Source: a virus
Lineage: Duplodnaviria; Heunggongvirae; Uroviricota; Caudoviricetes
Direction: 5' to 3' (one strand)
IMG/VR virus record: IMGVR_UViG_2671180296_000013
Coordinates: 1 to 25,079 of that record
DNA length: 25,079 nt
Below, in pieces: positions 22,442-23,345 of the stretch; the first letter of the stretch is position 1; every line of letters starts with the position of its first letter. The translations under genes were made by a program, and so were the position numbers. Below the pieces are notes generated by a model. The model ran no database searches. It worked only from the letters and a program-made list of their open reading frames with translations, and had not been told where the DNA came from.

Positions 22442-23118
22442 CTCCTGACATTATCCTGCAACGTACAGGAATCGACGTGAGAACTGTTAAACAAGGGGAT
22501 GATGCGTGGCACAAATTACGGCTCGGCGTCATCACAGCTTCAGAAGTTCACAACGTGATAGCAAAACCCCGCTCAGGAAAGAAATGGCCTGACATGAAAA
22601 TGTCCTACTTCCACACCCTGCTGGCTGAGGTCTGCACCGGAGTGACCCCGGAAGTTAACGCTAAAGCACTGGCCTGGGGAAAACAGTACGAGAACGACGC
22701 CAGAGCCCTGTTTGAGTTCATTTCCGGCGTGAATGTTACTGAATCCCCGATCATCTATCGTGACGAGACTATGCGCACCGCCTGCTCTCCCGATGGCTTA
22801 TGCAACGACGGTAACGGCCTTGAACTGAAATGCCCGTTTACCTCCCGGGATTTCATGAAGTTCCGGCTCGGTGGTTTCGGGGCCATAAAGTCGGCTTACA
22901 TGGCCCAGGTGCAGTACAGCATGTGGGTGACGCAAAAAGATGCCTGGTACTTTGCCAACTATGACCCGCGTATGAAGCGTGAAGGCCTGCATTATGTCGT
23001 GGTTGAGCGGGATGAAAAGTACATGGCGAGTTTTGACGAGATGGTGCCAGAATTCATCGAAAAAATGGACGAGGCACTGGCTGAAATGGGTTTTGTATTT
23101 GGGGAGCAATGGAAATGA
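22438..23118 (+). CDS. exo: Exo, lambda exonuclease (Red alpha)
   Basis: [15 protein letters not shown]...[36 protein letters not shown]... is near-identical to lambda Exo as I recall it. Confidence 0.95.
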
Positions 23119-23345
23119 GCGCAGCCACAAAGCTCACAGGAGAAAAACCAGTGCGATACACAAAAGTCAAACCATGCCCTTTTTGTGGTTGTCCATCAGT
23201 AACGGTGAAAGCCATTTCAGGATATTACCGCGCGAAGTGTAACGGATGCGAATCCCGAACCGGCTATGGTGGAAGTGAAAAAGAAGCACTCGAACGATGG
23301 AATAAACGAACCACTGGAAATAATAATGGAGGTGTTCATGTATAA
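23115..23345 (+). CDS. Lar-family restriction alleviation protein-like (Rac RalR position)
   Basis: [14 protein letters not shown]...YRAKCNGCE...EALERWNKR is the zinc-ribbon layout of Lar-family proteins; ATG at 23115 with GGGGAG SD. Confidence 0.6.

Follow-up and report, generated by a model that had tools for sequence, protein, structure and literature searches.

A probable RalR/RalA module retained beside gam, bet and exo in a Rac-like lambdoid prophage

The closest described relatives of the locus treated here are RalR and RalA of the Rac prophage in Escherichia coli K-12. RalR of K-12 was reported as the toxin of a type I toxin-antitoxin pair with the RNA RalA, and in vitro it behaves as a Mg/Ca-dependent, non-specific DNase, an activity that is absent from the K52Q mutant (Guo et al., 2014; PMC4041452). 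RalA suppresses RalR with Hfq through a 16-nt site in the ralR coding region, complementary to RalA nt 63-78 with 11 nt contiguous; the site was mapped with mutants and their compensatory counterparts (Guo et al., 2014; PMC4041452). An older line of work is associated with the same gene under the name lar. According to the passages that cite it in PMC2993543 and PMC6158711, Lar of Rac alleviates type I restriction and enhances methylation (King and Murray, 1995). Here we describe a related locus in a 25,079-nt stretch of viral DNA (Caudoviricetes; IMG/VR record IMGVR_UViG_2671180296_000013, positions 1 to 25,079), the whole of which is called the window below. The element near its right end is very probably the RalR/RalA module of a Rac-like lambdoid prophage, consisting of ralR and a convergent gene for RalA.

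Judged by its sequence, the open reading frame (ORF) in question is ralR (lar), the specific RalR orthologue of Rac-type E. coli prophages. Its product scores 52.6 bits with PF14354 Lar_restr_allev (cut-off 28.6; E = 5.4e-14), 54.6 bits with TIGR03655 anti_R_Lar, 'Lar family restriction alleviation protein' (cut-off 39.6; E = 9.8e-15), and 157.5 bits with NCBIfam NF007260 (cut-off 113; E = 1e-46), an equivalog model named 'type I toxin-antitoxin system endodeoxyribonuclease toxin RalR'. PHROG 599, 'Lar-like restriction alleviation protein', is also matched (E = 2.5e-17). An earlier reading of this DNA, made from the letters alone and called the sequence-only reading below, had placed the ORF in the Lar family by its zinc-ribbon layout, CPFCG followed by C..C, and had named a search with hidden Markov models of the family as the check. 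That search is positive with PF14354 and TIGR03655, every curated cut-off is exceeded, and the layout is present beyond chance at the E value of PF14354, so the family call is borne out. In the numbering of the 64-aa protein, the layout reads KPCPFCGC...KCNGC with the zinc-ribbon cysteines C9, C12, C30 and C33, and the C-terminal helix carries the motif W50-N51-x-R53 (WNxR). All nine residues that are invariant among 54 single-domain Lar members (C9, P10, F11, C12, C30, C33, W50, N51 and R53) are kept. In alignment, C14, T37, Y39, R49, N51 and K52 are the same as in K-12 RalR, in which mutations at positions 14, 37, 39, 49, 51 and 52 lower toxicity (PMC4041452). In strains OkiPb01695 and R1, a protein of exactly this sequence carries the annotation RalR (WP_001307771.1); identity to RalR of a K-12-like strain is 94% over 64 aa.

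The AlphaFold model of RalR consists of three strands and a C-terminal helix (pLDDT 69.4, moderate confidence). A fold search with this moderate-confidence model found no nuclease-like fold, and an HNH or beta-beta-alpha-metal nuclease fold, considered as a possible basis for the DNase activity, gained no support from the same search. A sequence search of the PDB returned chance matches to the chitin-binding protein CbpD and nothing else, and none of the PADLOC defence models match RalR or the ORF that lies opposite RalA. Pfam also gave Zn_ribbon_Elf1 at 16.3 bits, under its cut-off of 29.8; the likeness to an Elf1-type zinc ribbon is a structural resemblance alone, seen with the moderate-confidence model, and does not imply a functional link. 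The family as a whole is large. An exhaustive search of a 1.8-billion-protein library gave 1,042 cluster representatives at E <= 0.001. Many Lar-domain proteins carry 2-6 tandem Lar domains in 105-364 aa, an arrangement that is explained by neither published function.

The second component of the module is the antitoxin RNA. RF02694, RalA 'RalR antitoxin', is the sole Rfam match above its gathering score in the whole window, and it is matched over its full length, 1-179, with 216.9 bits (gathering score 170; E = 5.9e-52). At its 3' end, RalA shares 2 nt with the ralR stop codon. In ralR, the 16-nt target AAGTGAAAAAGAAGCA is identical to the K-12-like site, and between RalA nt 63-74 and ralR codons 42-46 the 11-nt Watson-Crick core is intact together with one G-U pair. 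On the plus strand, the two 16-nt sites form direct repeats, which become complementary because RalA is read from the minus strand; no inverted repeats were found in 23100-23540. Pairing was assessed with local duplexes and with the longest complementary run against a shuffle control. Folding of the full-length ralR mRNA/RalA duplex was discarded, as it gave meaningless end-to-end duplexes no better than shuffles. RalA also ends in a stem-loop with a U-rich tail, the proposed terminator of K-12 RalA (PMC4041452). A candidate TACAAT lies on the minus strand at 23533-23538, 9 nt upstream of the RalA 5' end.

Several points weigh against assigning this pair as a RalR/RalA module. First, the 11-nt complementarity sets A-rich against U-rich sequence and was reached in 19 of 1,000 shuffles. 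The significance of the pairing therefore rests on the published mutagenesis and compensatory mutants. Second, the seed complementarity is absent from the homologous loci of Salmonella and Citrobacter, where the longest run is 7 nt, which is chance level. RalA-like sequence scores 141-144 bits in Salmonella, and 30-35 bits in Citrobacter and in a second Salmonella type. The scan of genome contigs for homologous loci comprised 8 loci, too few for covariation of the ralR:RalA pairing. Third, the predicted seed hairpin of RalA bears a 1-nt insertion. One extra G in the plus-strand run 23445-23448 becomes one extra C in RalA. Of the 1,813 complete E. coli genomes with the 71-nt segment, not one reaches 99% identity to the window there, so the insertion is absent from all of them. 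The extra C lies in the hairpin loop of the Rfam consensus structure, in the 3' part of the pairing region. The predicted local duplex is not weakened, with -18.8 kcal/mol here vs. -16.6 for the K-12-like RNA, and the covariance-model score is 216.9 bits vs. 219.6 for the K-12-like RNA. Fourth, the choice of the ralR start codon, to which we return below, is not settled.

How such a module would work can be proposed from the 94%-identical K-12 orthologue. RalA would pair with the ralR mRNA, aided by Hfq, and block its translation, so that RalR would be kept silent in the lysogen; RalR in excess over RalA would cause DNA damage and SOS induction (Guo et al., 2014; PMC4041452). From the papers citing King and Murray (1995), RalR would also shift type IA enzymes such as EcoKI towards methylation, by which restriction of unmodified DNA, for example recombination products, may be alleviated. 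Both activities may reside in one small DNA- or enzyme-binding zinc ribbon, the dose of which would be set by RalA. The host used by Guo et al. (2014) was BW25113, which is hsdR514, and no restriction assay is described (PMC4041452). Thus, the toxin study leaves restriction alleviation aside, and the two activities are not mutually exclusive. Either may be the one that dominates physiologically.

RalR/Lar might instead modulate type I enzymes alone, its toxicity and DNase activity being artefacts of overexpression or purification and RalA merely tuning its expression. Membership in the Lar family, the citation of Lar of Rac as a type I methylation enhancer in the relevant passages of PMC2993543 and PMC6158711, the lack of a visible nuclease fold in the predicted RalR model, and a location after the recombination module that suits protection of unmodified recombinant DNA are all consistent with this idea. 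It is nevertheless rather doubtful, as the identically purified K52Q mutant had no DNase activity, point mutations cut toxicity, and suppression by RalA was base-pairing-dependent (PMC4041452); in addition, the locus here has a dedicated antitoxin RNA that scores above the gathering threshold. The sequence-only reading had claimed that the ORF modulates host type I restriction-modification. This is cited for Lar of Rac in the same passages, but it is incomplete, because the orthologue was also characterised as a DNase toxin (PMC4041452). The further claim that Gam and the Lar-type protein give the prophage two anti-host-nuclease functions over-reads the locus and is at best half the story, since one published activity of RalR is itself that of a nuclease (PMC4041452).

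The opposite simplification, a pure addiction module in which RalR serves solely as a DNase toxin for prophage stability and leaves restriction unaffected, seems unlikely. The K-12 experiments (PMC4041452), an NCBI equivalog family named for the toxin function, and the presence of RalA speak for it. However, no direct assay has contradicted the earlier genetic findings that lar alleviates restriction. The wide distribution of the Lar domain (the 1,042 representatives, many with 2-6 tandem copies) would be odd for a toxin in need of a dedicated RNA antidote, and the loci of Salmonella and Citrobacter lack the complementarity to the RalA seed. A RalR/RalA module in which both activities are allowed for stays the preferred reading here.

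The plus-strand frame of ralR is uninterrupted from ATG 23109 or ATG 23115 to TAA 23343-23345, giving 78 aa and 76 aa, respectively, and 64 aa when read from GTG 23151. Most likely the coding sequence is 23151-23345, with the GTG start 36 nt downstream of ATG 23115. This start is favoured because NF007260 aligns end to end, residues 15-78 of the 78-aa ORF covering all 64 of its 64 positions, because the RefSeq start of the identical gene in strain OkiPb01695 is the GTG equivalent to window 23151, and because the N-termini of homologues agree, their KPCPFCG motif sitting 4-9 residues after the start. The ORF had been read before as 23115-23345; this is a real frame and a legitimate ATG-to-stop reading of 76 aa, with the start probably at GTG 23151 instead. 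Shine-Dalgarno sequences do not distinguish the two starts. AGGAG at 23138-23142 serves the GTG, and the predicted pairing is -7.7 kcal/mol for ATG 23115 vs. -7.4 for GTG 23151 with a spacing of 7 for both. A scan for promoters and terminators found no plus-strand promoter for ralR and no consensus terminator.

It is quite improbable, though worth stating, that a 76-aa chimeric isoform is made from ATG 23115, coupled to exo by an ATGA overlap left by a module swap. ATG 23115 and the exo stop codon do overlap as ATGA, the frame is open from 23115, the Shine-Dalgarno sequence equals that of the GTG, and the same ATGA site at the end of exo is where lambda-like phages start orf60a (DUF1317). The junction arrangement is kept in five of the five Red-type alleles compared. 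However, the extension is shared with no homologue outside the present allele in the homologue alignment, and both NF007260 and the RefSeq annotation begin at the GTG. By simple arithmetic, an open in-frame stretch of 12 codons has a chance of about 1 in 5. The five alleles differ at 23115-23150 by a single substitution, and their conservation carries no information because they are nearly identical there. Such an isoform, if made, may depend less on the ralR leader; control by RalA would persist anyway because the pairing site lies inside the coding region. Returning to the RalR/RalA module with the GTG start, the view that it is a decaying and non-functional remnant, drawn from the swapped 5' end, the GTG start, a leader and first five codons unlike those of K-12-like Rac, and the 1-nt insertion in both the RalA seed hairpin and the DUF1187 frame opposite, is very hard to maintain against an intact ORF with all nine family-invariant residues, an identical protein in prophages at two different chromosomal sites, a RalA score near that of the K-12-like RNA (216.9 vs. 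219.6 bits), and an insertion that sits in a hairpin loop without weakening the predicted duplex.

Table 1. Coordinates of the module and of neighbouring features in the window, with comparison ORFs in homologous loci.
Feature	Position	Strand	Basis or remark
ralR (lar), most likely coding sequence	23151..23345	+	GTG start, 64 aa, TAA 23343-23345; family models, RefSeq start
ralR leader, or possible in-frame 12-codon N-terminal extension	23115..23150	+	ATG 23115 overlaps exo stop
RalA antitoxin small RNA (sRNA), 180 nt	23344..23523	-	RF02694; convergent with ralR
RalA target site, 16 nt, AAGTGAAAAAGAAGCA, ralR codons 42-46	23273..23288	+	Site mutagenesis in PMC4041452
RalA seed region, nt 63-79 of the RNA, UGCUUCUUUUUUCCCCU	23445..23461	-	Rfam, alignment
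RalA 3' stem-loop GCCAC...GUGGC and U-rich tail	23352..23377	-	RNA fold, Rfam consensus structure
Module of gam (to 21656), bet (21662-22441) and exo (22438-23118)	21360..23118	+	Pfam, RefSeq of near-identical locus
xisR (23627-23842) and intR (23844-25079)	23627..25079	+	Rac-type excision/integration genes downstream of ralR
ydaC/rcbA-type DUF1187 ORF	23338..23502	+	Opposite RalA; frameshifted to 54 aa by extra G
DUF1187 ORFs, comparison loci	L002:5198-5386, L017:1688-1876, L020:1704-1898, L015 about 1705-1895		

The surroundings of the module fit its assignment (Table 1). The Rac-type synteny ralR-DUF1187-xisR-intR beside ttcA matches K-12-like Rac; ttcA after intR is seen in a 99.7%-identical genome, as the window itself ends at the intR stop codon. 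By this gene order, the context is a Rac-like prophage at ttcA. Upstream of ralR the resemblance is interrupted. A 677-aa ORF upstream of gam (19349-21382, plus strand) is equivalent to RecE residues 1-587, the catalytic C-terminal domain being absent. At the DNA level, homology to K-12-like Rac breaks off within recE at 21191 and is found again from 23140 on, about 11 nt upstream of ralR. Thus, a segment of about 1.95 kb with gam-bet-exo (21192-23139) has taken the place of the 3' part of recE and the whole of recT, and the swap has its right-hand junction between the exo stop codon and the ralR leader. Pfam identifies Gam with 187 bits, RecT (bet) with 112 bits and YqaJ (exo) with 105 bits. 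The sequence-only reading had described the Lar-type gene as retained next to the Red genes, with Gam as a neighbour. Gam is confirmed by its Pfam score, and 'retained' is an apt word, the recombination module having been swapped and the ralR-xis-int arm kept (homology limits 21191 and 23140). ralR follows gam-bet-exo as the last small gene of the early-left strand, with short gaps and the same orientation, and from this spacing it is plausible that ralR and gam-bet-exo form one operon.

ralR itself is common, being present in 4,128 of 5,426 complete E. coli genomes, and the exo-ralR junction occurs in 16 of the 5,426. Among the prophages with the junction are some that lie at a second site, near yebY/copD, and carry a different integrase; there the block recE'-gam-bet-exo-ralR-DUF1187 is found as well. 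The junction was seen in no phage record of the collection searched. The prophage of strain OkiPb01695 is 98.7% identical over window 6333-16699. Its annotated cargo comprises a scabin-related ADP-ribosyltransferase, a subtilase-family AB5 toxin binding subunit, the adhesin Paa and HokD, which by colinearity would map to about 7400-12200 of the window on the minus strand. Window 16700-17554 and 1-6332 are not colinear with this otherwise 98.7-99.6%-identical prophage. The former segment covers most of a 154-aa ORF (16915-17379) that is probably the immunity repressor and may be of another immunity type. On the plus strand between ralR and xisR, the scan found no terminator-like site. An early-left transcript that continued towards xis-int would be fully complementary to RalA over 180 nt, and RalA could then serve as a cis-antisense RNA against such read-through into xis and int too.

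The ORF opposite RalA deserves separate mention. Its product, of the DUF1187 type (YdaC/RcbA), scores 80.1 bits with PF06688, residues 2-41 matching model positions 1-40 of 61 alone. A G3A6 homopolymer tract is common to the RalA seed hairpin and to DUF1187 codons 37-39, and several other independent indels occur in this tract, for example in strain TUM9812. The frameshift product of the window is also found in a 15-member public protein cluster (P0218). An intact ORF and a conserved protein are seen in Escherichia, Salmonella, Citrobacter and Klebsiella, and between E. coli alleles eight of nine differences are at third codon positions. It was concluded by Guo et al. (2014) that ydaC is not translated (PMC4041452). 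By these comparisons DUF1187 looks protein-coding, at odds with the published view. A tentative proposal, which we think more apt to fail than to hold, is that DUF1187 is the conserved partner of the Lar gene, that RalA is a lineage-specific overlay, and that the G3A6 tract is a recurrent frameshift switch; this estimate covers the two-protein module, the overlay and the switch together. The role as conserved partner is suggested because the protein is conserved across genera and the seed complementarity is confined to Escherichia-type loci. If the proposal is true, the window represents the shifted, 54-aa state of the switch. The conservation hints at a partner and is a lead, not a result.

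The ralR/RalA feature is already known and annotated, the exact protein being in RefSeq and the K-12 orthologue having been studied experimentally. What the window adds is a slightly unusual neighbourhood for an ordinary feature, gam-bet-exo next to ralR, and a corrected annotation with a probable start codon, an antisense sRNA, RalA, and a toxin-antitoxin pair rather than simple anti-restriction. The sequence-only reading was right on the family and on retention beside the Red genes, and it missed the toxin-antitoxin nature and the RalA partner (RF02694, 216.9 bits). The ralR-ralA-xis-int arm stayed together through an exchange of RecET for Gam-Bet-Exo upstream. Published work has addressed the two functions of RalR/Lar only separately, the host of the toxin study being restriction-deficient (PMC4041452).

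Among known systems, RalR/RalA of K-12 Rac is the most similar. The two loci share the family and equivalog, the CxxC...CxxC and WNxR motifs, a convergent RalA with the same target site and 11-nt core, and DUF1187-xisR-intR-ttcA downstream. They differ upstream, where K-12 Rac has the C-terminal part of recE followed by recT and the window has gam-bet-exo. The leader and the first five codons also differ, with GTG and RYTKV here and ATG and RYDNV there. In addition, the window has an upstream in-frame ATG that overlaps the exo stop codon, and an extra C in the loop of the RalA seed hairpin that frameshifts DUF1187 as well. A more distant comparison is Ral of phage lambda, for which an identity of 24% to RalR has been given (Guo et al., 2014; PMC4041452). 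Like RalR, Ral is a small protein encoded in a lambdoid early-left operon, and it is reported to relieve type I restriction by enhancing methylation. Unlike in the K-12 comparison, a sequence relationship is undetectable: a Pfam scan at E <= 1 returned Lar_restr_allev and the weak Zn_ribbon_Elf1 alone, and in that scan RalR did not fall into the lambda Ral family. Lambda Ral is not known to have an RNA antitoxin. The toxins TisB, ShoB and ZorO are small hydrophobic membrane peptides. Their systems TisB/IstR-1, ShoB/OhsC and ZorO/OrzO resemble RalR/RalA in having an sRNA antitoxin with short, imperfect complementarity to the toxin mRNA (PMC4041452). In contrast, RalR is soluble, has a zinc ribbon and is reported to act as a DNase, and RalA is encoded in a convergent rather than a divergent arrangement, opposite a conserved ORF, DUF1187.
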